Source of the DNA: Clostridium saccharobutylicum DSM 13864
GTDB taxonomy: Bacteria > Bacillota > Clostridia > Clostridiales > Clostridiaceae
Direction of reading: 5' to 3'
DNA length: 24,000 nucleotides
Assembly: GCF_000473995.1 (NCBI RefSeq)
Contig: NC_022571.1
Span: 2,301,416 to 2,325,415, forward strand
Below are positions 1-20,482 of this stretch, one piece after another. Below the pieces are notes generated by a model that worked only from the letters and a program-made list of their open reading frames with translations, searched no databases and had not been told where the DNA came from. The stretch's first letter is position 1, and each line of letters starts with the position of its first letter. The position numbers and the translations under genes were made by a program.

Positions 1-1737
1 GAAGCAAGCGCAGCTTCAAGAGAGCTTGGTGCTACAATGACTCAAATAGCTACTGGAGCAGTACAAGCATCATCCGCAGCAGAAGAATCAAGAGCAGCAG
101 TAAATCAGATAGATAAAGCTTCTATTGTAGGAATGCAAAGGGCAAAGGAATCATTAGATAGAATGACTGAGGCTCAAGCACTAATAAGAACAACAGCAAG
201 AGATACAGAGCAGCTTATATTAGGAATTGGAGAAGCAGCAAAAACGAATCTTGAATCAGTTAAGTTAATAAATGAACTTGAAAAACAGTCTGATGAAATA
301 GGTGACATTGTACAAGCAGTGGTACGAATAGCTGATCAAACTAATTTGCTTGCTCTTAATGCTGCTATTGAAGCTGCTAGGGCAGGGGAACATGGAAGAG
401 GTTTTGCTGTAGTGGCAGATGAAGTGAGAAATTTAGCAGAGATATCTGAGAAATCTGCTCGTAATATAACAGACTTAGTAGATGAAATACAAAAAAATGT
501 TAAAATTGTTGTTACTGATATAGAAGCTTCAGGAAAAGCCGCAAACGAAGAAATTGAAAAAGCTAAAAAAATTACAGAGGATTTAGTAAAAGTTGAAGAA
601 GATGTTATCATAGTGCAACGTGGTATAAATGAAATTGAAGAAAACTCAACAGATGCAAATAATGGGGCTTCTGAATTTTTAGAAATATCTGAACAAATAG
701 CAGCAGCAGCAGAAGAGCAAACCAGTGCAGCAGAAGAAGTAGAGAGATCAATAGAAGAGCAAAATAAAGCATTTGAAGAATTAAATATAGCATCTTCTGA
801 ACTATCACAGTTATCAGAAGAATTAAAAGTATCAACAGATACACAAAAATCATCTGAAATACTTGCATCTACAGCTGAAGAACTTTCTTCAAATGTCGAA
901 GAGGCAAATTCAGTTGCAACAGAGATAATGAGAGCTATTGAACAAGTTGCAATAGGAGCTGAAACTCAAGCAAACTTGACAGAAAAAGCAGCATTAATTA
1001 GTGAAAGATTAGCTGCTGGAGCAACACAAATGAATTCAACATCAATTGAATCCGGAGAAAAAGTTACAGAGCTTCAGCAATTACTTGATGAGAACAAACA
1101 AGGAGTAGATGTAATGATAGATGGAATTAGTTCATCTGCAGAGGCTAGTAATGTGGCTGCAAAGAATATCAAGAATCTAGAGGAAACTACTAGAAAAATT
1201 GATAAAATTGTAGATGCAATTGTAAATGTAACAATTCAAACTAATATGTTAGCAGTTAATGGATCTATAGAAGCAGCTAGAGCAGGTGAATTTGGAAGAG
1301 GTTTCTCAGTAGTAGCAGGAGATATAAGAACATTAGCAAATGAATCAGCTGAGAATACAGATAAGATAAAAGATTTAGTTAGAGGAATTCAAAGTCAGAT
1401 TACAAGAGTTGCTATGGATATAGAATTATCTAGCAAGACTTCTTTCGCTGAGGTTGAAAAGGCAAAAACAATAACGGATAATTTAAATTTGATTCAAGAT
1501 GGCATGAATGTTATTTTAATTGGAACAAACGAAATTTCTAAAGGCTCTGAAGAAACTATGGTAGCACTTGAACAAGCTAAAAAGGGAGTTGAACAAATTT
1601 CATCAGCAGCTACAGAAACATCTGCAGCTACAGAAGAAGCGAGCAATGTGGCAACAGAGCAATCTAAAGGAATGCAAGAACTTGCAGAGGCTATAGAGGA
1701 GATAGCAGGGCTTGCAGATGAGTTACAAAATATGTAA
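1..1737 (+). CDS. Methyl-accepting chemotaxis protein with two tandem signalling (MA) domains. It is 5'-truncated by the window edge, and the ATG at 37 is internal.
   Basis: Frame 1 is open from nt 1 ([12 protein letters not shown] precedes the ATG at 37). There are two MCP hairpin-tip signatures: [35 protein letters not shown] (tip Glu codon at 388-390) and [37 protein letters not shown] (tip Glu codon at 1288-1290), exactly 300 codons apart. Each is followed by A/E/Q/S/T-rich methylation-helix-like segments ([20 protein letters not shown]; [20 protein letters not shown]). No hydrophobic TM stretch occurs in the visible part. Confidence 0.9.
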
Positions 1738-1755
1738 TTAATGGAGGGGTGACAA

Positions 1756-3225
1756 ATGGCTTCTATAGAAAACAATTTGAGTTTAACAGAAAGACAGTTG
1801 GTAACTTTCCATCTTGGAAACGATGAATTTGGTGCAGATATAATGAATGTAAAAGAAATAGTAAGAGTTTCCGAAATTACAAAAGTACCCAATGTGCCAT
1901 TCTATGTGGAGGGTGTCTGCAATCTTAGGGGAAATGTACTTCCTATCATAGATGGTAGGACAAGATTTAACATGGAAAAAAAGGATAAAGATGAGAACAG
2001 TAGAGTACTTGTAATTGATATAAATGGCAGGGCTACGGGTGTAATAGTAGATAGAGTTTCAGAAGTAATGAGAATAAATTCTTCAGAAATTGAAGCTACT
2101 CCAAGTATAATGAGAACAGAAAATATGGACTATTTAAGTGGAGTATTGAAACTTGATAATGGTAACCGGATTATATTGCTTTTAGATTTATTAAAAGTTT
2201 TAAATGTTGAGGAAGTTCAAAATATTGATTTAAAAGATTTTAGTACTGATTTAGAAAAAATAGATAATTTCATAGAAAAAGAAAAAATAAATGAAGAACA
2301 GTTAGTTTCTTTTATGGTTGATAAAGAAGAATATGCAATAAATATAATGCAGGTAAAAGAAATAATAAGAGTTATTGATATAGTGAAAGTTCCGAGTACT
2401 GAAGATTATATTGAAGGTGTAGTATCAATAAGAAATAATCTGTTGCCAATTATTAATTTGCGAAAATATTTTGGTTTAGAGATTTCACAAATCAATGATC
2501 ATACTAGAATTTTGATAGTTGATATGGGAAAAATAACCTGTGGAATAATGGTGGACAAGGTTTCAGAGGTGAAAAGAGTTCAAGAAAGTATTATACAGCC
2601 ACCACCAAGTATTTTTTCTAATGAAGAAGAGCCTCTTAAGGGGGTAGCTAAATTAGATGGTGGAAAAAGACTTATTATGATTTTAGAACCGACAAAGTTA
2701 ATATCCCTAGAAAGATTAGAAAAAATTGCAGGGCTTGAAGAAAATAAAGAAGAAAATTTTAAAACTATCGAAAAACAATTGCTAGCTGAAGAGCAATTAG
2801 TGACTTTTAAGATAGATCGTGAAGAATATGCTATAAAAATAAATTCTGTTCAAGAAATAACAAGAATGACAGAAATAACAAGAATTCCAAGAGCTCCATA
2901 TTTTATTGATGGTATTGTAAATCTTAGAGGAAATATTATACCGGCACTTGACTTAAGAAAACTATTTGAAATGGAGGAAAAAGAAGTAACAGATTCAACT
3001 CGAATTATCATTGTTGATTTAGATAATAAGAAAACAGGAATAATAGTTGATGAAGTTTCTGAAGTTTTAAGATTTGAAAAAAATCTTATAGAAAGTTCAC
3101 CAGGTATCTTAAGTAAAAGTAAAAGTAATAAATATATTGATGGAGTTGGTAAGATAGATAATGGAAATAGAATGGTTATAATACTGGAATTAAATCAAAT
3201 ACTAAATTTCAATAATAATATTTAA
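1756..3225 (+). CDS. cheW: Coupling protein with three tandem CheW domains
   Basis: Three repeats of the CheW core pattern: LVTFHLGNDEFGADIMNVKEIVRV...VEGVCNLRGNVLPIID; LVSFMVDKEEYAINIMQVKEIIRV...IEGVVSIRNNLLPIIN; LVTFKIDREEYAIKINSVQEITRM...IDGIVNLRGNIIPALD. Each is followed by a ...GIIVD.VSEV... segment. GGAGGGG RBS lies 7 nt upstream of the ATG. Confidence 0.9.
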   Translation: MASIENNLSLTERQLVTFHLGNDEFGADIMNVKEIVRVSEITKVPNVPFYVEGVCNLRGNVLPIIDGRTRFNMEKKDKDENSRVLVIDINGRATGVIVDRVSEVMRINSSEIEATPSIMRTENMDYLSGVLKLDNGNRIILLLDLLKVLNVEEVQNIDLKDFSTDLEKIDNFIEKEKINEEQLVSFMVDKEEYAINIMQVKEIIRVIDIVKVPSTEDYIEGVVSIRNNLLPIINLRKYFGLEISQINDHTRILIVDMGKITCGIMVDKVSEVKRVQESIIQPPPSIFSNEEEPLKGVAKLDGGKRLIMILEPTKLISLERLEKIAGLEENKEENFKTIEKQLLAEEQLVTFKIDREEYAIKINSVQEITRMTEITRIPRAPYFIDGIVNLRGNIIPALDLRKLFEMEEKEVTDSTRIIIVDLDNKKTGIIVDEVSEVLRFEKNLIESSPGILSKSKSNKYIDGVGKIDNGNRMVIILELNQILNFNNNI

Positions 3226-3236
3226 ATTATAAATAG

Positions 3237-3280
3237 TTCCATTTAGGTTATTCATAATTGAAAATCTAAATGGAATTTTA
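3237..3280 (+). terminator. Hairpin plus T-run between the cheW3 and cheB genes (possible partial intrinsic terminator or attenuator)
   Basis: TTCCATTTAG (3237-3246) is the exact reverse complement of CTAAATGGAA (3266-3275), with a 19-nt loop, followed directly by TTTTAT. The stem is AT-rich, so the strength is uncertain. Confidence 0.4.
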
Positions 3281-3323
3281 TAAGTAATACGTAGTTAATT
3301 TAATATTTAAGAAGGTGGTTATA

Positions 3324-4433
3324 ATGGTACATAAGATAAGAGTATTAATAGTAGATGATTCTGCGTTAATGAGAAGAGTAATAAAAGAGATTTTGCTTAC
3401 AGATGACAAATTAGAAATTGTTGGGATAGCCAAGGATGGAGAAGATGCCATAGAAAAAGTGAGATTACTAAATCCAGATGTAGTAACAATGGACATTAAC
3501 ATGCCTGTTATGGATGGATTAACTTCTATGCAGTATATTCTTGAAGAGTTTTCAGAAGTAGCTGTTCTTATTTTAAGTTCCCTTACACAAGAAGGTGCAT
3601 TGAAGACATTTGAGGCGCTTGAGTTAGGAGCATTTGATTATGTTAGTAAGCCTTCAGGAACGGTATCTTCAAACTTATATATAGTTGGAAAAGAAATAAT
3701 AGAAAAAGTTAAAGCTGCTTACAAGTATATCCAAAAAAGAAATAGGCATCAAAGAATTATGGGGGGGAAGTCTACACTTATTGGAATTAGAAGTAATAAG
3801 AATCATAAGCAACCTATCATTGGTGAAAGAAAGGTTTCAATAAGTGACAATCTTTCAAAAGTTGTAGTAATTGGTATATCAACAGGAGGACCAAGCACGC
3901 TTATGGAGGTACTTCCACAGCTGCCAGGTGATTTAAAAGCATCTATAATAGTAGTGCAGCATATGCCGCCATCATTTACAGGTCAATTTGCTAAGCGAAT
4001 TGATTCAGCAACTGAAATTGATTTTAAGGAAGCTGAGGCAGGAGATATTATTACTAATGGAAGAGGATTTTTAGCACCAGGGGGATATCAGCTTTTAGTA
4101 AGAAGTAGCAGTCTAAAAGGTGGTAATCTGATAAGGTTGACCAAGCAGCCTCAAACTCTTTTTATGCCTTCTGTTAATATAACTATGGAATCAGTGCTTG
4201 AATGTTTCGGTCCTAAAAAAACTATAGGAGTTTTAATGACTGGAATGGGTGACGATGGCGCAGATGCAATGGTTAAAATAAAAAGAGCAGGCGGCATAAC
4301 TATAGCAGAAGATGAATCTACTGCAGTTGTATATGGGATGCCAAGGGAAGCAATAAAAAGAGGCGGAGCTGATATAGTAGTGCCTTCATATAAAATAGCA
4401 AGGGAAATAATAAAAGCAGTAAATATGAAATAA
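3324..4433 (+). CDS. cheB: CheB protein-glutamate methylesterase (receiver plus methylesterase domain)
   Basis: The N-terminal receiver has RVLIVDDSALMR and PDVVTMDINMPVMDG. The C-terminal part has VVIGISTGGP...VVQHMPP...GVLMTGMGDDGA...VVYGMPREAI. The ATG at 3324 is preferred over the GTG at 3315 because AAGGTGG (3312-3318) sits about 6 nt upstream of it. Confidence 0.93.
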   Translation: MVHKIRVLIVDDSALMRRVIKEILLTDDKLEIVGIAKDGEDAIEKVRLLNPDVVTMDINMPVMDGLTSMQYILEEFSEVAVLILSSLTQEGALKTFEALELGAFDYVSKPSGTVSSNLYIVGKEIIEKVKAAYKYIQKRNRHQRIMGGKSTLIGIRSNKNHKQPIIGERKVSISDNLSKVVVIGISTGGPSTLMEVLPQLPGDLKASIIVVQHMPPSFTGQFAKRIDSATEIDFKEAEAGDIITNGRGFLAPGGYQLLVRSSSLKGGNLIRLTKQPQTLFMPSVNITMESVLECFGPKKTIGVLMTGMGDDGADAMVKIKRAGGITIAEDESTAVVYGMPREAIKRGGADIVVPSYKIAREIIKAVNMK

Positions 4434-4459
4434 TAATTCAATTCTATTCAACTGGAAAG

Positions 4460-6349
4460 GTGCTGATTGAGATAGATTTTTATGAGCTTCAAGAAATGAA
4501 TGAAAGTAATATTGAATATCTTATAAATGAACTTAAAAATGAAAAAGATAAATATACTCAAGAAATAATTGCGAATAGAATTGGACAATTTAAATCTGAA
4601 TACACTGCAAATTTAGTTGGAAAAATGCTTGAAATAGAAGATACCCGTATTCGAAATACAGCTATAGAAATATTACAGGATATGGGCGAAATGTGTATTA
4701 ATACTATAAGCAAAATGGTTTATCATAATGATAAAAATGTAAGAAAATTCATATTAGATATAATAAAAGAAATAAAAACTGAGAAAAGCAGTTTAGTTGC
4801 GTTGGCTGCATTAAATGACAATGACGACAACATAGTTCAAACAGCTGTAGAAATAGTAAATTATAATAGATACATTCCTGCTATTCCTAAGTTATTAGAT
4901 ATTTTAAAAGTAACTAATAATATATGGATAATTGTTGCTTTAATCAATGCCTTTTCTACACTAGGAGAAAAATCTGCTGCACAGCATATAGAAGAGAGAT
5001 TAGATGAAATTAGTTTATCAACTTTAGAAAAAAATATTATTATTAATTATTATGTTAAGGCCCTAGGTGATATAGGTTCAATTAGGCACTTAGAGAAGAC
5101 TATGACTATATACAAGAATATGTTTCAAATTGATGATGATAATTTAGATTACTGCATTAATGGAATAGTTACTAGAAATGAAGTTGATACCTTAAGCTTA
5201 GATGTCATAAGTTTGATCCAAGAATATTATGAAGATAAAATTAATTCTAAAAATCCGAAGTTAACCTTGGATAATATTAGAACAGCAGTAAAATTAGGAT
5301 TTATATTTTCTATAGATAGTATAGAACTTTTAAAAGAATTGCTAATAAATTCTCCGAGCGAAGATTATTTTGAAGGTTTATTTGAAATAGTAGCGAATCA
5401 AAAAGATTTATCTAAAGATATTATCTCAGAGCTTATAAAGCATAATGATTCCCAAATAAACGTGTTTACTTTAAGGCTTATTAGAAGAAGGCGAATTTTA
5501 GGATTTAATGAATTTGTAAAAAGTTTTCTGATTAGTGGAATAGATACTAATATGTGCGTTGAGGCTTTAAATGTTGTTACAAGAATTGAAAGCTATTATG
5601 ATAAGGAGATTTTAAATCGATTTGTTAATTGCAATAATCATGAATTGAGTAAGATTGCAATACAAGGGATAAAGCTTGAATCAGTAAGTGATAGAGACAC
5701 TTTAATGAAGATATTTATTGGTTCTAATACTGATTTAAGAAAAATTATAGTAAAAAGGTTTATAGAAAATAGTAAATTTATAGATATTGATAAAATTATA
5801 GAAATAATTAGAGAAGCGAAAGATTCTGCCATAGTAGAGGCGTTAGAAATTTTGTTTTACATAGATAGTAAAAGGGCTGGAGAAGTTATTGATGAAACTT
5901 TAGATAATGAAGATAAAGAGATAAGAAAAAAAATAGTTAGAATAATGAAGTTAATTGGAACTGATGATGATTTCTATAAATACATGTACATTATGGCTCA
6001 AGATTGTGAAGCAGAAGTAAGAAGAGTAGTCATAAGGGAGATAAGCAAAGAAAGTAAGCATAGAGCATTTGTTTTTCTTAAGGGGCTTTTGGAAAGCGAA
6101 AACGACGTGCAAAATAAATATGAAATTATATGTAATCTTTATAAGTATAAATTTGAGGATTGTTACAAACTAATAGTTCAAAATTTAGAGAACAGTAATC
6201 TTCTCTTGAAAATTGCAGCCATTACAAGCTTAGGAGCATATGGAGATAAACGAGCAATAGAATATTTAAGTGAACTAATTAAAGATATAAATCCTGATAT
6301 CAGAGAGTGTGTACAAGAGGCGCTTTATAGATTGGAAGTGGTTAAGTGA
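4460..6349 (+). CDS. HEAT-repeat (PBS-lyase-type) protein of unknown function
   Basis: Recurrent helical-repeat motifs of the D..VR..A...L type: EDTRIRNTAIEILQDMG, NDKNVRKFILDIIKEI, DNIVQTAVEIV, EDKEIRKKIVRIMKLIG, CEAEVRRVVIREISK, NPDIRECVQEALYRL. The GTG start at 4460 is uncertain, and the in-frame ATG at 4496 is an alternative. The stop overlaps the cheR start. Confidence 0.7.
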   Translation: MLIEIDFYELQEMNESNIEYLINELKNEKDKYTQEIIANRIGQFKSEYTANLVGKMLEIEDTRIRNTAIEILQDMGEMCINTISKMVYHNDKNVRKFILDIIKEIKTEKSSLVALAALNDNDDNIVQTAVEIVNYNRYIPAIPKLLDILKVTNNIWIIVALINAFSTLGEKSAAQHIEERLDEISLSTLEKNIIINYYVKALGDIGSIRHLEKTMTIYKNMFQIDDDNLDYCINGIVTRNEVDTLSLDVISLIQEYYEDKINSKNPKLTLDNIRTAVKLGFIFSIDSIELLKELLINSPSEDYFEGLFEIVANQKDLSKDIISELIKHNDSQINVFTLRLIRRRRILGFNEFVKSFLISGIDTNMCVEALNVVTRIESYYDKEILNRFVNCNNHELSKIAIQGIKLESVSDRDTLMKIFIGSNTDLRKIIVKRFIENSKFIDIDKIIEIIREAKDSAIVEALEILFYIDSKRAGEVIDETLDNEDKEIRKKIVRIMKLIGTDDDFYKYMYIMAQDCEAEVRRVVIREISKESKHRAFVFLKGLLESENDVQNKYEIICNLYKYKFEDCYKLIVQNLENSNLLLKIAAITSLGAYGDKRAIEYLSELIKDINPDIRECVQEALYRLEVVK

Positions 6350-7188
6350 TATTATCGGAGATTTTATATGAGAAGTTTACAGAGTTCATTTATAGAAAAA
6401 CAGGATTATACTACGAGACTAATAAAAAATATTTTGTAGAAAAAAGAATTGAAAATCGCACTATTGAATTAGGTTTTTCAGATTACAAAGAATATTATAA
6501 TCTTATAAAATTCTCTGTTGATGAAACCGAATTTTATAAACTTGTTAATGATTTAACAGTTAATGAAACTTATTTTTTTCGCGATTTTCCACAACTTCAG
6601 AATTTTGCAGAAAAGGTGCTTCCAATTATAGTAAAAGAAAAGGAAAAAAATAATGATTACACCCTCAATATATGGAGCGCGGCTTGTTCTAGAGGTGATG
6701 AACCATATACTTTAGCTATAATACTAAATGAGATGTTAGATAAACCAGAAAAATGGGATATTAAGATAACGGCATCGGATATTAATGATGAAGTTCTTAA
6801 ATTTGCAAAAATAGGTGCATATGATAATAGATCAATAAAAGATGTACCACCGGAGTATCTTAATAAATACTTTGTAAAAAGAAATGAAAAATATTTAGTT
6901 AATTTGAAGATTAGGAAACCATTGGAATTTAAAAGGTTAAATTTTTTTGATTTTAGTGAAATGAAAAAAATGATAAATTATGATGTTATTTTTTGTAGAA
7001 ATGCTCTGATTTATTTTAATGACCAATCAAGAAAAACAGTAATAGATAGTTTTTATTACAGTTTAAATCCAGGAGGTTTTATATTCCTCGGTCATTCAGA
7101 GTCTATAGGAAGAATAAGTTCTGCTTTCCAAGCTAAAAGAATTGGAAGTGGAATAGTTTATTCAAAACCTTTCAGAGAGGATTTGTAA
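6346..7188 (+). CDS. cheR: CheR chemotaxis protein methyltransferase
   Basis: VNETYFFRD, NIWSAACSRGDEPYTLAIIL, ITASDIN, VIFCRNALIYFN and GGFIFLGHSES motifs. The GTG start overlaps the upstream stop (GTGA). Confidence 0.92.
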   Translation: MILSEILYEKFTEFIYRKTGLYYETNKKYFVEKRIENRTIELGFSDYKEYYNLIKFSVDETEFYKLVNDLTVNETYFFRDFPQLQNFAEKVLPIIVKEKEKNNDYTLNIWSAACSRGDEPYTLAIILNEMLDKPEKWDIKITASDINDEVLKFAKIGAYDNRSIKDVPPEYLNKYFVKRNEKYLVNLKIRKPLEFKRLNFFDFSEMKKMINYDVIFCRNALIYFNDQSRKTVIDSFYYSLNPGGFIFLGHSESIGRISSAFQAKRIGSGIVYSKPFREDL

Positions 7189-7190
7189 GT

Positions 7191-7559
7191 ATGAAAAAGA
7201 TATTGATTGTTGATGATTCAGAAATGGTTAGAAATTTTTACAGCTATATTTTAAAAGTGTTTTCCATGGAATCAGATACGGCAGAAAATGGCTTAGTTGC
7301 TTATGAAAAAATATTAGAGAGTGAATTCAGTGTTATTATTACTGATATAAATATGCCAAAAATGAATGGGTATGAATTAGTAGAAGAAATAAGAAGATTA
7401 GAAATAAAGACTCCTATAATAGTAGTATCTACTCAGGATGAGCAAAAAGAAATATTAAAAAGCATGAAAGCTGGCGCGAATATATTTCTTATTAAACCTA
7501 CAGAACCTGATAAATTTATACATACAGTTAAAGAAATCCTTAGAAAAGAGAGTGTGTAG
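7191..7559 (+). CDS. Single-domain response regulator (CheY-like receiver)
   Basis: KILIVDDSEMVR, VIITDINMPKMNGYEL, IIVVSTQ and FLIKP give the full set of receiver acidic pocket, phospho-Asp, Thr/Ser and Lys positions. It lies 2 nt after cheR and 2 nt before cheA. Confidence 0.85.
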   Translation: MKKILIVDDSEMVRNFYSYILKVFSMESDTAENGLVAYEKILESEFSVIITDINMPKMNGYELVEEIRRLEIKTPIIVVSTQDEQKEILKSMKAGANIFLIKPTEPDKFIHTVKEILRKESV

Positions 7560-11163: not shown

Positions 11164-11262
11164 AAACAAAAGCAAAATATATAAATAATTTAATTAGAGA
11201 ATCAGATGTGATCTACTAGAAATTACATAATAAATTAAAATGATTTGGAAGGACGGAAAATA

Positions 11263-12136: not shown

Positions 12137-12553
12137 ATGGGAAAAATTCCAATTATAAAAATAAGAAACTTTTTGATTGTATCACTTGATGGTGATTTAA
12201 CAGATAAATCAGCTATTAAGCTGCAATCTGATATACTTAATAAGGTTTATGAAAATACAGTGAAGGGCGTTTTAATAGATATATCAATTTTGGATATGGT
12301 GGATTCATATCTAGGTAAAATTATAGCTGATATGTCAGCAATGATTAAATTATTAGGAGCAGAAACAGTTCTTGTAGGCATGAAGCCCAATGTAGCTATA
12401 ACACTTGTAGAGATGGGATTTAATATAGACGGAATTGCTACTTCAATGAATGTTGAAACTGGAATAGAAATGTTAGAGAATATAATAAAATCAAATGCAA
12501 TTCAAGAAGTTTTTTTTAATGAATTGTTGAAAGTGAGAAATGATGATATGTAA
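12137..12553 (+). CDS. rsbS: RsbS-type single STAS stressosome protein
   Basis: IPIIKIRNFLIVSLDGDLTD...VLIDISILDMVDSYLGKII...GAETVLVGMKPNVAITLVEMGF. The Ser in DMVDSY aligns with the RsbS phospho-Ser position. TGGAGAG RBS upstream. The stop overlaps the rsbT start. Confidence 0.8.
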   Translation: MGKIPIIKIRNFLIVSLDGDLTDKSAIKLQSDILNKVYENTVKGVLIDISILDMVDSYLGKIIADMSAMIKLLGAETVLVGMKPNVAITLVEMGFNIDGIATSMNVETGIEMLENIIKSNAIQEVFFNELLKVRNDDM

Positions 12554-12938
12554 TGAAATTTCTATTGAGTATGAAAAGGATATAGTTGTTGCAAGGCAAA
12601 AGGCAAGAGAAGTATCCAAAATTCTAGAGTTTGGAATTGTAGATCAAACAAGAATTATTACTGCTGTTAGTGAACTGGCAAGGAATATATTTCTATATGC
12701 ACAAAAAGGAACGGTCAAATTTCAAGAAGTTTTTGAAGATAGAAAGCACGGATTGCAAATTTCTTTTATGGATGATGGGCCTGGAATTGAAGATGTAGAA
12801 TTTGCAATGCAGGGTGGATATTCTAAAGGCCGCAGTATGGGGCTTGGAATGTCTGGAAGTAAGAGATTGATGGATGAATTTTACGTAACTTCATTATTAG
12901 GGAAGGGAACAGAGATCATAATAAAGAAATGGTTGTGA
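12540..12938 (+). CDS. rsbT: RsbT-type serine kinase / switch protein
   Basis: From memory it aligns near full length with B. subtilis RsbT: DIVVARQKAREVSKILEFGIVDQTRIITAVSELARNIFLYA...DDGPGIEDV...GLGMSGSKRLMDEF...GKGTEIIIKKWL. Confidence 0.88.
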   Translation: MMICNEISIEYEKDIVVARQKAREVSKILEFGIVDQTRIITAVSELARNIFLYAQKGTVKFQEVFEDRKHGLQISFMDDGPGIEDVEFAMQGGYSKGRSMGLGMSGSKRLMDEFYVTSLLGKGTEIIIKKWL

Positions 12939-12971: not shown

Positions 12972-14018
12972 ATGGAAATATTTGAAATAAGTAACGATTG
13001 GGATATAGGAAAAGTTAGAAGATATATAGCAGAAAAGAGCAAAGAAACAGGATTTTCTAGTATAGAAATAGGAGAAATATCCATTGTAGTTAATGAACTT
13101 TGTTCAAATTTAATAAAGCATCATTCAGTTGAAGGTAAACTAATATTTAAAAAATTAGAAATGAACGGAAGAGTTGGAATTGAAATTATAGCTGAGGATA
13201 AAGGCCCTGGAATTCTTAATGTGGATGAGGTTATAAAAGATGGAATATCTACAAAGGGGACAATGGGTGGGGGACTTGGAGCAACTAAAAGATTAATGGA
13301 CAGCTTTGAACTTTATTCTAGAACAAGTACTAATCGAGGAAAGTATATTGGATATGGACACTTGGGGGGGAATAATAGAATTGGAACTATTGTTATAACT
13401 CAGAAATGGCTTAAAAATAGCTTATATATAGGAACAAAAGAAGTTAAGATAAGTGTAATGAGTAGACCTTATATGGGATGTAAAATAAACGGAGATGTAT
13501 ATTACATTAAAGAATTTAATAATAAAGTAATTTTTGCACTTATAGATGGTTTAGGTCATGGAATAGAGGCTAACAAAGCTGCAATTAGAGCAAAAGAATT
13601 GCTAGAGGAAAATAATTATAAGTCATTAAAGGAATTGCTTTATAGTATTGATAATGGTATGAAAAATACAAGAGGTGCCGTAATTGGTGTATGTATAATT
13701 GATAAGGAGACAAAGAGATTTCAATATGGAAGTATTGGAAATGTTCAGCTAAGGTACATCTTAAATAACAAAACTAAAAAATTTATAGCTACTAATGGTA
13801 CTTTGGGTGTTTCTCTTAATACGAGAGTCAATGTACAGCAAAGCTCATATGAAAATGGAGGAATTATAGCGATGAACACAGATGGCATATCAGATAAATG
13901 GGAGTATGATGAATATTTGGATATACCAGTACATAATCCTGCGGTGCTTTCTAACATGATATTTAGAGATTTTGCAAGAGATAATGATGATGCGACTGTT
14001 TTAGTGGCAGTTATTTAG
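12972..14018 (+). CDS. rsbX: Fusion protein: RsbT/RsbW-like GHKL kinase-type N-domain plus RsbX-like PP2C (SpoIIE-type) phosphatase
   Basis: N-terminal half: IGEISIVVNELCSNLIKH...EDKGPGILNV...GGGLGATKRLMDSFE. C-terminal half: NGDVYYIKEFNNKVIFALIDGLGHGIEANKAA...TRGAVIGVCIID...YGSIGNV...AMNTDGISD...DDATVLVAVI, collinear with B. subtilis RsbX as I remember it. Confidence 0.8.
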   Translation: MEIFEISNDWDIGKVRRYIAEKSKETGFSSIEIGEISIVVNELCSNLIKHHSVEGKLIFKKLEMNGRVGIEIIAEDKGPGILNVDEVIKDGISTKGTMGGGLGATKRLMDSFELYSRTSTNRGKYIGYGHLGGNNRIGTIVITQKWLKNSLYIGTKEVKISVMSRPYMGCKINGDVYYIKEFNNKVIFALIDGLGHGIEANKAAIRAKELLEENNYKSLKELLYSIDNGMKNTRGAVIGVCIIDKETKRFQYGSIGNVQLRYILNNKTKKFIATNGTLGVSLNTRVNVQQSSYENGGIIAMNTDGISDKWEYDEYLDIPVHNPAVLSNMIFRDFARDNDDATVLVAVI

Positions 14019-14028
14019 AGGATAATTT

Positions 14029-15000
14029 ATGAGCAAAGATAGGGAATACCTGATTAGAAGAAATATTGAATTAGAAGAACAAGTTGGAGATCTAACAAAG
14101 GAACTTATTCAAACTAATCACGAAGTACTTAATATTTTACAAGCTTTTGAGGATTTGAATAAAGATATGTTGAGTAACGATAAAGAAAAAAATGAGTTTC
14201 TGACTAAACTTAAGATTTCTAACAAAGAACAGTTAGAAAAAATTAAAATGCAGGAAAATGCTTTAATCCAGGCTGATAAGTTAGCTTCCTTAGGGCAGCT
14301 TATTGCTGGAATAGCTCATGAAATCAATAATCCAAATACGTATATAAGAGCAAATATAGAACTTTTGCAAAAATATTGGAAGCTGTTAGAAAAAAAAATA
14401 AGTGTAGATGAAGGGGATTTCTGTACATCAATTGTAAGCGATGTTCCAAACATTATGACTTCCATGTATAAAGGAACAGAGAGAATAATGGAAATAATAA
14501 GTGCACTTAAAGCTTTTTCGAAAGAAGAAAAGTTATTTTATGAAAAAATAAATATAAATCAATTTATAGAGGAAGCGTACAAATTAATTAAGGTTGAATT
14601 AACAAAAAATAAGGTAATCTTGATTAATAAAGTTAATCAAGACGGATATGAAATAAATGCATCTAAGCAGAAAATAGAACAAGTTCTAATTAACCTATTT
14701 TTAAATTCGATTAAAGCAATAAAACATAAAAAAGAAGAAAATGGTCAAATTATTATATTTGCATCAGAAGATAAGGATATTCTTAATATTTCTATAAAGG
14801 ATAATGGTTGCGGAATAAATAAAGAGCATTTAGATATGATTTTTAATCCATTTTTCACTACTCACCAAGAGGATGGTGGAACTGGACTCGGATTATCTAT
14901 AGTACACGGAATTATGAAGGAACACGGGGGAAGTATTAAGGTACAGAGCAAAATAAATGAAGGTACAGAGTTCACTCTTATATTTCCTAAGGGTAGGTGA
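14029..15000 (+). CDS. Cytoplasmic histidine kinase without a recognisable sensor domain (coiled-coil N-terminus, HisKA, HATPase)
   Basis: H-box LASLGQLIAGIAHEINNPNTYI (His97). ATPase motifs QVLINLFLNSIKA, IKDNGCGI, FNPFFTT and GGTGLGLSIVHGIMKEHGGSI. Residues 1-80 are charged and heptad-like, and no TM segment is present. Confidence 0.88.
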   Translation: MSKDREYLIRRNIELEEQVGDLTKELIQTNHEVLNILQAFEDLNKDMLSNDKEKNEFLTKLKISNKEQLEKIKMQENALIQADKLASLGQLIAGIAHEINNPNTYIRANIELLQKYWKLLEKKISVDEGDFCTSIVSDVPNIMTSMYKGTERIMEIISALKAFSKEEKLFYEKININQFIEEAYKLIKVELTKNKVILINKVNQDGYEINASKQKIEQVLINLFLNSIKAIKHKKEENGQIIIFASEDKDILNISIKDNGCGINKEHLDMIFNPFFTTHQEDGGTGLGLSIVHGIMKEHGGSIKVQSKINEGTEFTLIFPKGR

Positions 15001-15006
15001 TAAAAT

Positions 15007-16431
15007 ATGAATCAAAACGAGCTTTTAGAAGTTTACTTTGAAGAGACTTGTGAAAATTTAGATGAAGCAGAAAGATGTATGATAGGTTTGGAAAAGTCAT
15101 TTTGTATGGAAGAGCTCAACAGTCTTTTTAGGTGTATTCATACAATTAAAGGTAGCTCAGCAGCTGTAGACTTTAATGAAATTTCAAGCTTAGCGCATAA
15201 ATTAGAAGATATATTAAACCATGTGCGTGATGGGGATTTAGAGTTTAATTCAGATAATTCTAATCTTTGCATTAGTTCCATAGATAAGCTTTTGGAATTA
15301 TTTAATTTTCGTAGACAGTATAGAAATGATGATATTGATTATGACATAATAAAAAATACTTTAGATATTGAAGAACGTATGGATCAGCTAATAAGTAGTG
15401 TAAGTGAAGATACAGGAGATATAGAAGATAAACAACCGATTATTATAACAAATTCTCAAAAGGAAGATAATTATAATGAAAAGTTTTATCAGACATATTT
15501 CGTTCATATACTATTTGATGTTGAAGATATGATGCAATCAATAACAAGTTTTATGATTATTAATTCAATGAATGAAAATGGGAAGATATGCTATTCATAT
15601 CCAGAAGTTGATTTTATGATATCAATGCAAATTAATGAACCAGTTAGTCATTACGAATGTCTATTTAAAACAAATCTTGATAGTGAACAATTATTTAATA
15701 AATTAGATATTCCATTTATAAAAAAAATTAAGATTATTGATGTTACTAATGCAATCTCATCAAGAGAAGAATTAACAGATTATACTGAAAAGGTATGTAT
15801 TTTATTTGCTTTATTAAATAATTTTCTATCTATAGGAAAATACTATAACAATGTTTCTTTTAGTAAAAAAGCAAAGAAGGATATAAATAATTTATATGAA
15901 AACTGTGAAAAAATTTTAGAATCGAATGAGTTTAGCGAAGAGATAGTAATGCTAATTAAAGAATTGAAATCATTTCTAGATATACCAATATACATGATTG
16001 ATAACAACTCTTGCAAGGAGTTATTTAACAGTACAAATAGTTTATATGAATGCTTGATTTATAAAATATATAATACTTTTAAGAATAAAATAATTTTTAA
16101 ATACGTTGAACTTAAACTGGACAAGCAAAATATCGAAAGATTAGATAATATATCTAGTAAGCTTAATAAAAAAATATTTAAATATGTGCTTCTTGATGTA
16201 AGTGAAGTAGAAATACTTGAAAGTGATGAGATTAAGAAATTAATTAAAGTTAATAATTCATTGGAAGAAGAAGGTATTGAACTGGTTATTATAAATGGAG
16301 GAAAATATAAAAAGAGATTATACAATATATTTGAAGCCATAGGAGACTTTGATAATATTAGGCAGTGCAATAGTGAAATAAATGCAGTTTTACTTATAAA
16401 AAATAATAAAGAAAGGTATGAGGAATTATGA
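15007..16431 (+). CDS. Protein with a CheA-P1-like HPt domain at the N-terminus and a STAS-like domain at the C-terminus. The middle roughly 250 aa is unassigned.
   Basis: N-terminus: LNSLFRCIHTIKGSSAAVDFNEISSLAHKLEDILNHVRDGDL (His45, CAT 15139-15141). C-terminus: KYVLLDVSEVEILESDEIKKLIKVNNSLEEEGIELVIINGG...LYNIFEAIGDFDNI...SEINAVL, which follows the SpoIIAA/STAS layout. GGTAGGTGA RBS upstream. The stop overlaps the next gene. Confidence 0.6.
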   Translation: MNQNELLEVYFEETCENLDEAERCMIGLEKSFCMEELNSLFRCIHTIKGSSAAVDFNEISSLAHKLEDILNHVRDGDLEFNSDNSNLCISSIDKLLELFNFRRQYRNDDIDYDIIKNTLDIEERMDQLISSVSEDTGDIEDKQPIIITNSQKEDNYNEKFYQTYFVHILFDVEDMMQSITSFMIINSMNENGKICYSYPEVDFMISMQINEPVSHYECLFKTNLDSEQLFNKLDIPFIKKIKIIDVTNAISSREELTDYTEKVCILFALLNNFLSIGKYYNNVSFSKKAKKDINNLYENCEKILESNEFSEEIVMLIKELKSFLDIPIYMIDNNSCKELFNSTNSLYECLIYKIYNTFKNKIIFKYVELKLDKQNIERLDNISSKLNKKIFKYVLLDVSEVEILESDEIKKLIKVNNSLEEEGIELVIINGGKYKKRLYNIFEAIGDFDNIRQCNSEINAVLLIKNNKERYEEL

Positions 16432-16841
16432 AAAAGGAATATAAAATACTGATAATCGATGATGAAGAAGAGATTTTATTATCATTAAAAAAGAATCTTA
16501 TACTTGAAGGATATAATGTAGAGACATGCAATGATTCAGTAGAAGCACTGGAAATGATAAAAAACAATAAGTTTCATATTGTAATAACTGATATTGTAAT
16601 GCCTAATATGAATGGTATAGATCTTTTGAAAGCAGCTAAAGCTTATGATGCATTGACACAAGTAATAATGATGACTGGATATTCAACAATGGAAATAACA
16701 ATACAATCTTTAGAATTCGGAGCAAATGATTATATTCTTAAACCTTTTAAAAGTATTGAATATATTATTGAAATTATAGATTACTCTATACAGAAGTTAG
16801 AGAGATGGAGAGAGTCCATAAGGGGACTTGTATCAAAATAA
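16428..16841 (+). CDS. Stand-alone response regulator receiver with a short helical C-terminal tail
   Basis: KILIIDDEEEIL, HIVITDIVMPNMNGIDLL, VIMMTGYS and YILKPF. The ATG overlaps the upstream stop (ATGA). Confidence 0.88.
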   Translation: MKKEYKILIIDDEEEILLSLKKNLILEGYNVETCNDSVEALEMIKNNKFHIVITDIVMPNMNGIDLLKAAKAYDALTQVIMMTGYSTMEITIQSLEFGANDYILKPFKSIEYIIEIIDYSIQKLERWRESIRGLVSK

Positions 16842-16890
16842 AATTATAAGTAAATAAAAATCAATTGCAGGGCATAAAGGAGAAAAAAAT

Positions 16891-17118
16891 ATGACTCAGT
16901 TTGATGATGAAATATTATTAAAAGTATTAAAAACTAATGATACAGAAATGTACACATTAGCAGAAATTCATAAGATAATATTACAAAATGATATTAAATG
17001 CAGTATAGAAGAAATTAGAAAAAAAATTCATATTTTATTGTGCGATGGTTACTTGGGTTTTGAGTTAATAAGTGATGGAATTAAAATGTATTTCGTAATT
17101 TTTTCTCCTGAATATTAA
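16891..17118 (+). CDS. Hypothetical 75-aa protein
   Basis: AAGGAG RBS lies 8 nt upstream of the ATG, and it is co-directional with the operon. I recognise no motif in it. Confidence 0.45.
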   Translation: MTQFDDEILLKVLKTNDTEMYTLAEIHKIILQNDIKCSIEEIRKKIHILLCDGYLGFELISDGIKMYFVIFSPEY

Positions 17119-17318
17119 TTTAAGGCACATTCAAAAAAATAACAAGTCCATTTACCAGACTATTTTCCATCATACTGCATTGGTAAATTGACCTAATAGA
17201 TCCGCTATGAGGGCGATTTGCCTCTTTGGTTGATGAAAAATTATCTATGGTAACTTTGGACCTGTTATTTATTTTCATGTGCCTAAATAAGTATATTTTT
17301 ACAAGATAGGAGGTTAGT

Positions 17319-18083
17319 ATGATTAATGAACCTTTGAAATATGCAGTACTTAATAATAAAGGTGGTGTGGGAAAAAGTACAATTTCTGTACATATTGCAC
17401 ATGGACTTGCCCTTCTAGGGAATAAAGTATTGTTGATTGATATGGATGGACAAAATGATGCAAGTTTATTTCTTGGCATTTCTGATCAAGATTATAAAAA
17501 GACATTTTACGATTTGATTAACAAAAGAGAGGATGTTGAACTTTCAGAGTGCATAATTAATGTAAGGGATAATTTGGACTTACTCCCATCTAAGCACATA
17601 GACATTATAAATACAGAGTTTTATAGAGAATCAAGAATTGATTTAATACTAAAAGAAAAATTACAAGGCATAAATACCATGGAGTATAACTATCTTATTA
17701 TTGACTGTGGACCTCAACGAAGTAAAGTTAATGATGCAGTTTTATGCTTTGTTGATAACATAATAGTTCCAGTTCAGGTAGAATCAGCATCCGTTAGAGC
17801 TATTGGAAATATATATGAGTATCTATCTGACTTAAGATTGAATCCAGAGATGATAGAGTTAATAATACCTAATATGTATGATCAAAGAACAAGTGAATCT
17901 AGGGAGAACATGCAGCTGCTTAAAGAATTATTTTCAGAAAGTAATTTTTTGGCTGAACCAATCAATAGAAGAGTAAAGATTACAGAAGCAGGGAAATTAG
18001 GGAAAACCGTATATGAATATGATAAAGATTCTGCTAAACAGTTTTTTAAAATAGTTGAGAGGCTGGTAAGCACAAATGCCTAG
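17319..18083 (+). CDS. ParA/MinD-family (deviant Walker A) ATPase
   Basis: VLNNKGGVGKSTISVHIAHGLALLGNKVLLIDMDGQ (KGGxGKS with signature Lys), YNYLIIDCGP (Walker B-like). TAGGAGG RBS upstream. The 3' end overlaps the next gene by 8 nt. Confidence 0.88.
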   Translation: MINEPLKYAVLNNKGGVGKSTISVHIAHGLALLGNKVLLIDMDGQNDASLFLGISDQDYKKTFYDLINKREDVELSECIINVRDNLDLLPSKHIDIINTEFYRESRIDLILKEKLQGINTMEYNYLIIDCGPQRSKVNDAVLCFVDNIIVPVQVESASVRAIGNIYEYLSDLRLNPEMIELIIPNMYDQRTSESRENMQLLKELFSESNFLAEPINRRVKITEAGKLGKTVYEYDKDSAKQFFKIVERLVSTNA

Positions 18084-19881
18084 AAGTAAGGTAAATAAAG
18101 AGGTATTAAACAGTATTGATAAGATAAAACAGGAAATTAATAAAAAGAAACAAAAGGCTATAGAATCACATAATTCCAATGAATTTATACTTGAAAAAGA
18201 TAAGTTAAGTAATGATAATTTAGAGTTGTCCAATAATAAAAGTATTGATAAAGTCAATATTAATATTGGTGAAGGAAAAAAAGACATCAATAAAGCAATC
18301 AAAAGTACAAAGAAAGTACATAAAGCTGCCAATAAAGAAACTAAAAGTGCTAGTAAAAGAACTAAAAGTGTGGCAAAAAAGTGTGAAAGTGTAGATGAAA
18401 AAAATAAAAATAGTAGTGAAAATGCAGATAAAAGGCAAGGCGATGAAACCAAGTATGTAATTTTTGTGGTGAACAATGAAGAATATGCAATAGAATTAGT
18501 TAATGTAAAAGAGATAATTAGGATACCAAAAATTAAGAAAGTACCTAATTCTGTTTATGTTGAAGGAGTATTTAATTTAAGAGGGGAACTTGTTACTATA
18601 ATTGATATTCATAAGAGATATAACATATCTAAAAGTGAATATAAAGATAATAGCAGAGTCATAGTTATGGAATTTGGCGGCTGTATTGTAGGCATTATTG
18701 TTGATAAAGTTTTACAGGTGTTAGCTGTTCATAAATCATATATAAAATTAATATGTGAAAATACTGATGATACGAAGGAAGGCTATATTGATGGCATTAT
18801 AATGATTGAAAATGGAAAAAGATTAATTATGATTATGGATGCACAAAGTATCATAAATATAAATGGTCTTGGAAGTATTTTAGTCAATGCATATAAAAAA
18901 TCAAATGAAAAAGTATCAGCTTTTATTAAGGATATTGAAGAAAATGAGCAGCTAATAATTTTTAGTATAAATGATGTTGAGTATGCATTTCATATATCCG
19001 AAATAAAGGAAGTTATTAGAATTCCAAATGTTGTAAAGGTACCAAATTCTTCGGATTTTATAGAAGGTATTATTTCATTAAGAAATGAACTCATTGGAGT
19101 AGTAAACCTTGCTAAAATTATAAATATAGATAGTGAAAGTATCAGCAAAGACCGAAGCATACTCATAGTTAATACAGGAAATTTAATATATGGAGTAATT
19201 GTTGATAAAGTTTCAGAAGTAAAATTGGTTTCAAAAAAAGATTTATTAAAGCCATGGCAAGTTGTTGGAAATATTGATGTTAAAATAGTGAAAGAATTTG
19301 CTAATATGGATAATGGTAAAAGAGTAGTTACAATATTGGATCCATATAATATTTTAAATCTTGAGGAAATACAATGGAATTTTAAGGTTAATGAAATCAC
19401 TGAAATTGTTTCAAATAATTATAATAAATCTACATTAGATTTAAAAAAAATAATAAAAAGTATTGTGATTTTTAAAATAGAAAATGAAGAATATGGAATT
19501 AGTATTGATTTTGTTCAAGAAATTAATACAATTAATAAAATTACAAGCTTCCCTAATAGACAAAATGCTGTTGAAGGATTAATAAATTTAAGAGGAGATA
19601 TGATTCCATTAATTAATTTACGAACATTGTTTGGTTTAGAAATTCAGAGTAAAGATTCTTATTTCAAAACTTTAATTGTAAAAATAAATAATAAGAAAGT
19701 AGGAATTCGCATTGATTCAGCATCAGAAGTTCTAAACCTTTCAGAGGATATATTTCAAGATTATTTTGAAGATTTAAATGCAGATAATAATAGAAGATAT
19801 GTAGAGGGAATTATAAAGCCGAATGATGGTAAACGAATTATTCTTTATCTTAACATAAATGAAATTTTAGATTTTATATAA
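18076..19881 (+). CDS. Protein with a roughly 125-aa Lys-rich N-terminal tail followed by three CheW domains
   Basis: Tail: MPRSKVNKEVLNSIDKIKQEINKKKQKAIE...KSTKKVHKAANKETKSASKRTKSVAKK. CheW cores: YVIFVVNNEEYAIELVNVKEIIRI...VEGVFNLRGELVTIID; LIIFSINDVEYAFHISEIKEVIRI...IEGIISLRNELIGVVN; IVIFKIENEEYGISIDFVQEINTI...VEGLINLRGDMIPLIN. Confidence 0.85.
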   Translation: MPRSKVNKEVLNSIDKIKQEINKKKQKAIESHNSNEFILEKDKLSNDNLELSNNKSIDKVNINIGEGKKDINKAIKSTKKVHKAANKETKSASKRTKSVAKKCESVDEKNKNSSENADKRQGDETKYVIFVVNNEEYAIELVNVKEIIRIPKIKKVPNSVYVEGVFNLRGELVTIIDIHKRYNISKSEYKDNSRVIVMEFGGCIVGIIVDKVLQVLAVHKSYIKLICENTDDTKEGYIDGIIMIENGKRLIMIMDAQSIININGLGSILVNAYKKSNEKVSAFIKDIEENEQLIIFSINDVEYAFHISEIKEVIRIPNVVKVPNSSDFIEGIISLRNELIGVVNLAKIINIDSESISKDRSILIVNTGNLIYGVIVDKVSEVKLVSKKDLLKPWQVVGNIDVKIVKEFANMDNGKRVVTILDPYNILNLEEIQWNFKVNEITEIVSNNYNKSTLDLKKIIKSIVIFKIENEEYGISIDFVQEINTINKITSFPNRQNAVEGLINLRGDMIPLINLRTLFGLEIQSKDSYFKTLIVKINNKKVGIRIDSASEVLNLSEDIFQDYFEDLNADNNRRYVEGIIKPNDGKRIILYLNINEILDFI

Positions 19882-19940
19882 AATTCTATTCATTTGGTGA
19901 AAATTAATTTAAATATAATCAAAGAAAATAGTATGATAAT

Positions 19941-20087
19941 TAGGGCGTGTCTGAGAACTATTTATTACTATATAAATAGTCAAATTAATGTGATTTACTA
20001 ATAGAAAACAACCATTAATTAGAGTATGAATCTCTTGTTTTCTGGTTCTTTCTTAATTTTATTTGTTAAGTTTTTAGACACGTCCTA
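19941..20087 (+). promoter_or_regulatory. Candidate structured 5' leader RNA upstream of the third cheY (closing stem plus two internal hairpins)
   Basis: GGGCGTGTCTGA (19943-19954) pairs with TTAGACACGTCC (20074-20085), extendable to about 17 bp. Two of the 12 core pairs (a third in the extension) are G-U on the plus-strand transcript and would be A-C mismatches on the minus strand. Internal hairpins: ACTATTTAT/ATAAATAGT (19957-19965/19972-19980) and AGAAAACAA/TTGTTTTCT (20003-20011/20035-20043). A TATAAT hexamer at 19914-19919 is a possible -10, but its -35 is weak. Confidence 0.35.
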
Positions 20088-20128
20088 GTTTAAAATTAAA
20101 AAAAATTTTTATACGAGGAGAAAATTAA

Positions 20129-20482
20129 ATGAAAAAAGTTTTGATTGTTGATGATGCAGTTTATATGAGACTTTCTTTAAGGGACATATTAGAAAGAAAT
20201 GGATTTGAAGTTATAGGGGATGCGGTAAATGGAATAGATGCTATTAATAAATATAAAATGTTAATCCCAGACATTGTAACTATGGATATAACAATGCCAG
20301 AAATGGATGGAGTTAAAGCATTACAGGAAATAAAAAAGTTAGATCCAAATGCTAAGGTAGTAATAATATCTGCAATGGGTCAAGAATCTATTGTTAGAGA
20401 AGCAATAATGAATGGTGCTAAAGGATTTATAATAAAACCTTTTAAAGAAGAAAAAGTTATTCAGTCATTAAGTAAGATATAG
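20129..20482 (+). CDS. cheY: CheY response regulator
   Basis: KVLIVDDAVYMR, PDIVTMDITMPEMDGVKA, VVIISAMG and FIIKPF. GAGGAG RBS upstream. Confidence 0.9.
   Translation: MKKVLIVDDAVYMRLSLRDILERNGFEVIGDAVNGIDAINKYKMLIPDIVTMDITMPEMDGVKALQEIKKLDPNAKVVIISAMGQESIVREAIMNGAKGFIIKPFKEEKVIQSLSKI

Follow-up and report, generated by a model that had tools for sequence, protein, structure and literature searches.

A stressosome cassette conserved within clostridial F9-class chemosensory clusters and its candidate phosphorelay connection to a cytoplasmic array

We analyzed a locus of Clostridium saccharobutylicum DSM 13864 in which stressosome genes, including those for RsbR, RsbS and RsbT, are embedded in a chemosensory gene cluster of the F9 class. 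The window, by which we mean the whole stretch of DNA analyzed, comprises 24,000 nt (NC_022571.1, positions 2,301,416 to 2,325,415), and a preliminary description made from the sequence had covered its positions 1 to 20482. We found the same pairing in about eleven clostridial lineages, and by comparison of gene neighborhoods a functional coupling of the stressosome cassette to the F9 cluster is well supported. In our judgment, the balance tilts toward a circuit in which the RsbRST stressosome is wired into the F9 system as an extra input, through a relay made up of a histidine kinase (HK), the stand-alone receiver REC3 and a protein with CheA-type P1 and P2 domains.

Gene neighborhoods were gathered by exact-protein look-ups and two collection scans and were annotated by Pfam and tblastn; a scan of genome contigs with RsbR returned five loci and missed the source clade. 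The Rsb cassette, consisting of RsbR-RsbS-RsbT-kinase/PP2C-HK together with REC3 and an Hpt protein, was embedded in the F9 clusters of about eleven clostridial lineages (a count that includes the metagenome contig L024, which stops within the kinase/PP2C gene), and these lineages come from at least two clostridial orders. The juxtaposition is thus no accident of a single genome. The cassette occupies four different positions in F9 clusters. It follows cheX-cheX in C. saccharobutylicum, C. diolis/beijerinckii and the metagenome relative L012; lies upstream of dosM in C. cylindrosporum; is found between cheB and the HEAT gene in Pseudobacteroides cellulosolvens, Petroclostridium sp. X23, three Bacillota metagenome-assembled genomes and the metagenome contig L021; and follows cheA in L024. 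That the linkage survives four insertion points argues for functional coupling.

The F9 clusters further form a graded series. The cluster of Ruminiclostridium herbifermentans contains REC3 and the Hpt-STAS protein, with no kinase and no Rsb genes; that of contig L019 also has the HK, directly after cheB, and again no Rsb genes; the other lineages have, in addition, RsbRST-kinase/PP2C directly upstream of the HK. This modular gradation suggests an order of action from stressosome to HK to receiver/Hpt-P2 protein to the F9 CheYs. In C. magnum and C. sp. PL3, the Hpt-P2-STAS/REC3 pair stands immediately after cheA, and RsbRST is absent. Among the 15 lineages sampled (window included), the pair of REC3 and Hpt-P2-STAS protein occurred solely in F9 clusters, with or without Rsb genes.

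Two other signaling sets were observed next to clostridial F9 clusters. Directly 5' of the F9 clusters of C. magnum and C. sp. PL3 (L001, positions 1-2061, and L005, positions 1-2373) are genes for a REC-PP2C protein, an RsbW-like kinase, a single-domain STAS protein and an Hpt protein, along with a divergent gene of the XRE helix-turn-helix (HTH) type, which makes a second, different pairing of a partner switch with F9. In the Petroclostridium-type clusters (L013, positions 461-4122; also L015, L016 and L021), the gene ahead of cheY4-orf75-dosM encodes a PAS-PAS-PAS hybrid kinase that also contains REC and Hpt domains; it is followed by a receiver and then by a 75-aa open reading frame (ORF) with a weak match resembling sigma-70 region 4. 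The arrangement points to additional phosphorelay inputs.

RsbR relatives number in the thousands. A metagenome profile scan with RsbR yielded 80 loci, mostly from soil and with 36-53% identity, most of which carried RsbRST and the kinase/PP2C fusion, often with a kinase and a receiver, and had no Che genes; F9 clusters were present solely at L021 and L024. The cassette is therefore of the known "RsbRSTX plus two-component/phosphorelay" type, one clostridial branch of which is attached to F9 clusters. The preliminary description had seen no transcriptional output in the locus; the module is nevertheless not devoid of output, as RsbRST-PP2C followed by HK and receiver matches a recognized phosphorelay output type, predicted for RsbRSTX modules that are followed by HisKA, REC and Hpt proteins (Heinz et al.).

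By sequence, the stressosome parts of the window are genuine:

11263..12123, + strand: RsbR, with RsbRD_N sensor and STAS domains (Pfam)
12137..12553, + strand: RsbS, single-STAS scaffold (match to B. subtilis RsbS, 6JHK, 1.2e-30)
12540..12938, + strand: RsbT-type serine kinase (HATPase_c and HATPase_c_2; best solved relative SpoIIAB)
12972..14018, + strand: RsbT-like kinase domain fused to an RsbX-type PP2C phosphatase (HATPase_c_2 and SpoIIE)

RsbR matches the RsbR chains of the solved Listeria and Vibrio stressosomes (2.6e-30), keeping the equivalent of Thr209 (in TVDT) and having Ser at the equivalent of Thr175. RsbS retains the phospho-serine motif LDMVDS, which aligns with VDMIDS, and also matches Moorella MtS (2VY9); rsbT follows rsbS directly with a 14-nt overlap. 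Of the gene order rsbR-rsbS-rsbT-rsbX proposed earlier, the first three assignments stood, and the fourth gene proved to encode the kinase/PP2C fusion. The N-terminal half of this fusion is a paralogue of the RsbT of the window (31% identity, with the N, G1 and G2 boxes visible), and its PP2C half is closest to Moorella MtX (3ZT9, 1.9e-14) and B. subtilis RsbX (3W40). The fusion was also found at full length in 30 soil-metagenome RsbRST loci (among L023-L098); it is thus widespread, and the single-domain RsbX of model organisms is not the sole form of the feedback phosphatase.

Three genes that follow the fusion encode the putative relay:

14029..15000, + strand: soluble HK without a sensor domain (HisKA and HATPase_c; AtoS/NtrB-like; no transmembrane segment)
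15007..16431, + strand: phosphotransfer protein with P1 (Hpt), P2, helical and STAS-like regions (Pfam Hpt, P2 and a weak STAS match, E 0.003)
16428..16841, + strand: REC3, stand-alone receiver of the NtrC/AtoC type without an output domain (Response_reg 6.7e-28; best NCBIfam match AtoC/NtrC)

These genes are tightly packed, with spacings of 33, 10, 6 and -4 nt at the junctions rsbT/fusion, fusion/HK, HK/Hpt and Hpt/REC3, and the 4-nt overlap couples REC3 translationally to the gene of the Hpt protein. An N-terminal helix of about 45 aa (LTxELxxTNxxVLxxxQxFE) is present in 10 of 10 Rsb-linked HKs and is missing from the sole Rsb-less F9 HK, that of L019, so that this helix co-occurs with the Rsb genes. 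The AlphaFold2 (AF2) model of the Hpt-P2-STAS protein (predicted local distance difference test [pLDDT] score 72.6) was matched by Foldseek to CheA P1 (TM 0.85) and P2 (TM 0.83), with the P1 of R. sphaeroides CheA3 among the best structural matches of its P1 and PDB 3KYI among the matches of the model; its C-terminal domain resembled STAS proteins including SpoIIAA (TM 0.65-0.70). The protein of the window is 100% identical to an NCBI entry from C. saccharobutylicum. The family is rare: an exhaustive phmmer search of 1.84 billion proteins returned 22 representatives, and a profile search with the C-terminal half added 11 further proteins. So few relatives indicate a small family and leave a link to Vibrio unsupported. 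The architecture is kept across the family, one member of which (P0271) is a fusion with the REC3 receiver.

The genes around the cassette form an F9-class, entirely cytoplasmic chemosensory system, as indicated by DosM, the triple CheW, the core gene order and the lack of membrane segments; the class placement is that of Mo et al. 2022:

1..1737, + strand: DosM-type soluble chemoreceptor with two signaling tips, 5' end cut (MCPsignal 2.1e-61, several stretches)
1756..3225, + strand: CheW3a, triple CheW scaffold, F9 signature (CheW 1.9e-109, 3 stretches)
3315..4433, + strand: CheB methylesterase, annotated start 3324 (Response_reg and CheB_methylest; a called gene in locus L008)
4460..6349, + strand: HEAT-repeat protein, annotated start 4496 (HEAT_2 9.3e-27)
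6346..7188, + strand: CheR methyltransferase (CheR and CheR_N)
7191..7559, + strand: CheY1, single-domain receiver (Response_reg 1.9e-27; catalytic D/D/T-S/K residues present)
7562..9799, + strand: CheA with two P1 (Hpt) domains, P3, P4 and P5 (Hpt, H-kinase_dim, HATPase_c and CheW matches)
9818..10189, + strand: CheY2, single-domain receiver (Response_reg 4.8e-28)
10227..10712, + strand: CheX1, CheY-P phosphatase family (CheX 4.7e-19)
10702..11163, + strand: CheX2, CheY-P phosphatase family (CheX 3.3e-18, weak CheC match)
17319..18083, + strand: ParA-family ATPase, candidate array-positioning ATPase (AAA_31, CbiA, ParA and MipZ matches)
18076..19881, + strand: CheW3b, triple CheW, candidate ParA adaptor (CheW 3.5e-85, 3 stretches)
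20129..20482, + strand: CheY4, single-domain receiver (Response_reg 9.1e-28)

DosM and CheW3 are the two signature components that define the F9 class (Mo et al. 2022). In the S6 table of that study, C. saccharobutylicum DSM 13864 carries systems of classes F1, F7, F9 and F11, and its F9 genes are listed in the order "[DosMW3B.RYAYXX]; W3Y", which equals the window minus the nine genes between cheX2 and cheW3b; the terms STAS, RsbR and stressosome were not found in the paper and its supplements. The Che-type array of the preliminary description is hence confirmed in its genes, and its generic label gives way to a known class in which this very cluster had been catalogued.

The core order DosM-W3-B-.-R-Y-A is present in the window, the HEAT gene filling the "." slot between cheB and cheR; the HEAT-CheR adjacency is kept across all clostridial F9 loci. 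The DosM translation shows two EAARAGE(H/F)GRGF tips, the gene adjoins cheW3a with a gap of 18 nt, and orthologues from other orders share 70-75% identity with the protein. The first gene being truncated by the window edge, the complete DosM-type protein (662 aa) was taken from locus L008; it has a basic N-tail, no transmembrane or hydrophobic segment and no sensor region. None of the 21 proteins of the window contains a membrane segment. The two P1 copies of CheA are 35% identical (E 3e-12), each with an IHSIKG histidine motif, and Pfam annotation of the 7562..9799 product revealed no P2 domain; the CheA proteins of C. magnum and C. sp. PL3 apparently have a single P1.

ParA has a deviant Walker A motif (KGGVGKS). 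Its gene overlaps cheW3b by 8 nt, and parA also lies next to a CheW-domain gene in L011, L012, L018 and L019. CheW3b carries a Lys-rich N-terminal tail of 125 aa with an isoelectric point (pI) of 9.7. With these features, the ParA/CheW3b pair is a candidate for positioning the array. The cheY4 orthologues adjoin orf75 and dosM in other lineages.

All 21 ORFs lie on the + strand at exactly the coordinates reported before, with start/stop overlaps at 6346, 10702, 12540, 16428 and 18076; 16 of the 20 intergenic gaps are below 50 nt, and the other four measure 89, 99, 200 and 247 nt. The preliminary description proved accurate on all these points, as well as in its domain assignments, each of which is backed by Pfam (and NCBIfam), and in stating that every receiver is either single-domain or CheB. 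The Pfam order reads MCP, CheWx3, CheB, HEAT, CheR, REC, CheA, REC, CheX, CheX; then RsbRD_N+STAS, STAS, HATPase, HATPase_c_2+SpoIIE, HisKA+HATPase, Hpt+P2 (weak STAS), REC; and finally the 75-aa ORF, ParA, CheWx3 and REC.

From sequence features, the transcription unit probably spans from just ahead of the window to about position 20560. Its probable 3' end is a hairpin that starts 33 nt past cheY4 and has a fold energy of -28.3 kcal/mol (z -5.9):

20515..20558, + strand: perfect 20-bp hairpin, probable 3' end of the transcription unit (inverted repeat I5, 100% complementary)

A scan for terminators on the + strand between 9500 and 20482 gave nothing convincing, an Rfam search returned no match, and a promoter scan was uninformative in this AT-rich DNA (90 sites, with 100 expected). 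The fold of the 99-nt cheX2-rsbR gap (11164-11262) was not significant (minimum free energy [MFE] -6.4 kcal/mol, z -0.5), in agreement with the preliminary description, in which no hairpin could be found in this gap.

The 200-nt gap between orf75 and parA is due to an insertion of about 163 nt at 17119-17281, flanked by the inverted ends TTAAGGCACAT ... ATGTGCCTAAA, which C. diolis lacks, its gap there being 33 nt; the insertion may be a miniature transposable element. We rejected this gap as an operon boundary, since it holds a recent insertion. Likewise rejected was the 247-nt gap ahead of cheY4, which is poorly conserved and carries at 19940-20090 a species-specific long-range inverted repeat, GGGCGTGTCTGAG / TTAGACACGTCC, absent in C. 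diolis; the repeat may mark a further small insertion or form a large stem-loop. In three other C. saccharobutylicum assemblies (L003, L004 and L009), the reading frames of cheA, the kinase/PP2C fusion, HK, cheW3b, the HEAT gene or cheR are broken up or truncated; either these assemblies contain indel errors, or the cluster is decaying in some strains.

From the parts and their order we infer complex formation, a contact between RsbT and the kinase, the direction of phosphotransfer and the CheY partners. RsbR and RsbS would form a STAS core, in stressosomes a pseudo-icosahedral assembly of ~1.8 MDa, that holds RsbT, and the RsbT-like kinase/RsbX phosphatase fusion would reset this core. A stress signal would free RsbT to act on the sensor-less HK, probably via its conserved N-terminal helix; because the HK has no sensor of its own, RsbT would be its natural input. 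The HK would then phosphorylate REC3, the phosphoryl group would be transferred from REC3 to the P1 (Hpt) domain of the P1-P2-STAS protein, and P2 would dock the receivers of the F9 CheY and/or CheB proteins. An HK-REC-Hpt order is that of the classical His-Asp-His-Asp relay, and P2 is the domain with which CheA docks CheY and CheB. Docking by the P1-P2-STAS protein would matter because the F9 CheA is without P2. CheY phosphorylation would thereby be set twice, by the receptor array via CheA and by the stressosome via the His-Asp-His-Asp relay, with the two CheX proteins acting as phosphatases, and the final output would probably be flagellar behavior or another protein-level response.

A more far-reaching version, which we offer tentatively, is that the stressosome is the missing sensory input of the sensor-less F9 array, so that two megadalton assemblies would form one circuit in which stress resets CheY phosphorylation, and with it behavior, directly and without transcription. 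In V. cholerae, the F9 system builds two-layered, purely cytoplasmic arrays, which have been observed when cells starve or oxygen is scarce; neither what these arrays do nor what feeds into them is known. A sensor domain is missing from 98% of DosM proteins, and an external input has been postulated. If true, the one-circuit version would give F9 arrays a function and would do the same for stressosomes where sigma B is lacking.

Several observations weigh against the proposed input circuit. For no organism has the final output of an F9 system been established. That the HK helix varies together with the Rsb genes depends on one Rsb-less HK, and the genome of L019 could hold Rsb genes elsewhere. 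Pfam and NCBIfam detected no RsbU_N-like domain in the HK, and an RsbT-kinase interaction in Vibrio could not be demonstrated (Heinz et al.). The STAS-like domain of the Hpt protein stays in F9 clusters that have no Rsb genes, its role there being unexplained, and the position of its canonical phospho-serine is occupied by S, Y, T, V, P or E in different orthologues. The 99-nt gap upstream of rsbR may contain an internal promoter. Finally, one RsbR relative (L020, 53% identity) stands beside divergent kinases, with no Che genes.

The wiring might also run in reverse, which we regard as unlikely. The F9 array would be the sensor, CheA would phosphorylate the P1-P2-STAS protein in trans, and its STAS-like domain would engage RsbT or the kinase/PP2C fusion; chemosensory state would then control the stressosome, or the STAS-like domain would join the core as an RsbR-like co-antagonist. 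Consistent with this are the C-terminal STAS fold, the helical and STAS part of the protein aligning to RsbR of 7B0U (E 0.011), as well as the two RsbT-type kinases and three STAS-type domains that the locus encodes and the Hpt-P2-STAS/REC3 pair that follows CheA in C. magnum and C. sp. PL3 with a different partner-switch set nearby. In R. sphaeroides, moreover, split CheA P1 proteins are phosphorylated in trans. However, the phosphorylatable serine is variable, the domain is kept in clusters without RsbT, and hhalign revealed no similarity between its profile and that of the RsbR STAS domain (probability 0.7%). On account of the serine and the missing similarity, we downgraded the STAS-like domain as an RsbR-type co-antagonist or partner-switch element. 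Reverse wiring would also leave the HK without input, and the kinase/PP2C fusion, being common in RsbRST loci without Che genes, is not specialized for the P1-P2-STAS protein.

It appears quite unlikely, too, that the system has a transcriptional or second-messenger output, either via a protein encoded by a small gene within the cluster, orf75, or via cyclic di-GMP (c-di-GMP) enzymes beside it. The gene in question is:

16891..17118, + strand: orf75, acidic small protein, predicted winged-helix (ribosome-binding site present; conserved)

The orf75 orthologues in 7 other loci are 51-83% identical and usually lie beside cheY4 and dosM. Its AF2 model, a single-sequence model with pLDDT 75, has an H-H-H-beta-beta topology, and Foldseek matched it to the DNA-binding domains of PadR, Fur, RTP, TubR and MarR. 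Conservation and fold thus speak for a DNA-binding role, but the protein is acidic in 8 of 8 orthologues (pI 4.6-5.3) and has no Pfam HTH match, and we therefore leave orf75 as a transcription factor as a caveat. The family (74-80 aa; for example L013, positions 4952-5173, and L018, positions 4527-4766) corresponds to no Pfam family and was located within a clostridial F9 cluster at each locus examined. The statement of the preliminary description that the 21 proteins include no RsbU, RsbV, RsbW, sigma factor, GGDEF or DNA-binding domain holds at the level of Pfam, and the predicted winged helix of orf75 qualifies it.

The flanks offer two further candidates for such an output. One is a gene for a 5TMR-LYT-GGDEF protein, 525 nt upstream of dosM, and in L012 the cluster runs on into genes of the CheY-CheX-HD-GYP type; the V. 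vulnificus stressosome affects motility, apparently via fleQ transcription and c-di-GMP. Yet the GGDEF protein has its own membrane sensor and no receiver, its gene is unrelated and is followed by a terminator-like hairpin ahead of the ∼480-nt noncoding promoter region in front of dosM, and conservation of the cluster does not extend to the GGDEF gene or to the HD-GYP gene. The GGDEF gene, as a separate unit, was rejected as the output. RsbU, RsbV, RsbW and sigB were absent from the 8-10 kb flanks (the search for sigB covered no other part of the genome), so that no sigB-type or classical transcription-factor output, such as the preliminary description had considered just outside the window, lies in the immediate surroundings.

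The downstream flank carries a complete IS256-family element (20797-22294; 21-nt terminal inverted repeats and a 408-aa Transposase_mut gene) and, directly after it, an internally deleted IS66-type remnant with GTAAGCG ends (22308-23275), which together separate the F9 cluster from a LevR-type regulator. The genes that follow the F9 cluster in C. diolis are feoAB.

There is an equally slight chance that the two systems are neighbors without cross-talk, a self-contained "Vibrio-type" stressosome with its two-component output elsewhere merely sharing the F9 operon: the frequency of RsbRST-kinase/PP2C (with HK and REC) without Che genes, the close relative L020 outside an F9 cluster and a 99-nt gap that could hold a promoter all fit this, but it is countered by the linkage in about eleven lineages of two or more orders at four insertion points, by the confinement of REC3 and the Hpt-P2-STAS protein to F9 clusters in the lineages sampled and by the CheA-type P1 and P2 domains of the relay.

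F9 arrays have been well characterized structurally, but neither their signal nor their cellular role is known for any organism, and what stressosomes act on where sigma B is missing is likewise largely unknown. The conserved pairing of the two in genetically tractable solventogenic clostridia offers a concrete circuit, from RsbT to kinase, receiver, P1-P2 protein and CheY, and natural variants with and without Rsb genes, and with and without the kinase, can guide experiments. The preliminary description knew of no characterized system of this kind, and our literature searches, which paired stressosome with chemotaxis, CheA, DosM, CheW3 or Clostridium, likewise found no description of this arrangement or of a stressosome-F9 link. 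As far as we found, then, the parts and the F9 cluster are known, and the conserved stressosome/F9 fusion and the P1-P2-STAS relay are undescribed.

Among characterized systems, the chemosensory half is most readily compared to cluster I of V. cholerae (DosM, CheW3 and CheA1), with which it shares both F9 signature proteins, the core order, a cytoplasmic nature and coexistence with other Che systems. Unlike the Vibrio F9 system, the clostridial cluster adds the Rsb/HK cassette, REC3, the P1-P2-STAS protein, orf75, ParA and a second CheW3, and its CheA has two P1 domains; Rsb genes have not been reported for the Vibrio cluster. The ParA-like ATPase and the stand-alone P1 protein recall the cytoplasmic cluster of R. 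sphaeroides (CheA3/CheA4, TlpT and PpfA), and the CheW-domain partner adjoining ParA recalls the ParC/ParP pair of Vibrio; PpfA, ParC and ParP are examples of array positioning by ParA-type ATPases. R. sphaeroides, however, has a system of another chemosensory class, and the P1 protein of the window carries P2 and STAS-like domains, not P5.

The stressosome half shares with the SigB pathway of B. subtilis and Listeria homologous RsbR, RsbS and RsbT proteins, conserved phospho-sites and an RsbX-type phosphatase but, unlike that pathway, has no RsbU, RsbV, RsbW or SigB in the window or its flanks. It likewise resembles the MtR-MtS-MtT-MtX module of Moorella thermoacetica, to which its PP2C and RsbS are related as described above; there, a GGDEF protein follows the module, whereas here a kinase and phosphorelay do. 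The V. vulnificus RsbRSTX module (VvD1/VvD2) is similar in that RsbRST and a PP2C are directly followed by HK and receiver, with no sigB and no RsbU_N, and it is the nearest functional precedent, as this stressosome influences motility, apparently through fleQ transcription and c-di-GMP. In contrast to V. vulnificus, where RsbR senses through a heme globin, the RsbR of C. saccharobutylicum has an RsbRD_N sensor, its PP2C is fused to a second RsbT-like kinase, its receiver is without an output domain, and the relay ends in CheA-type P1-P2 domains within a Che cluster rather than in c-di-GMP enzymes.

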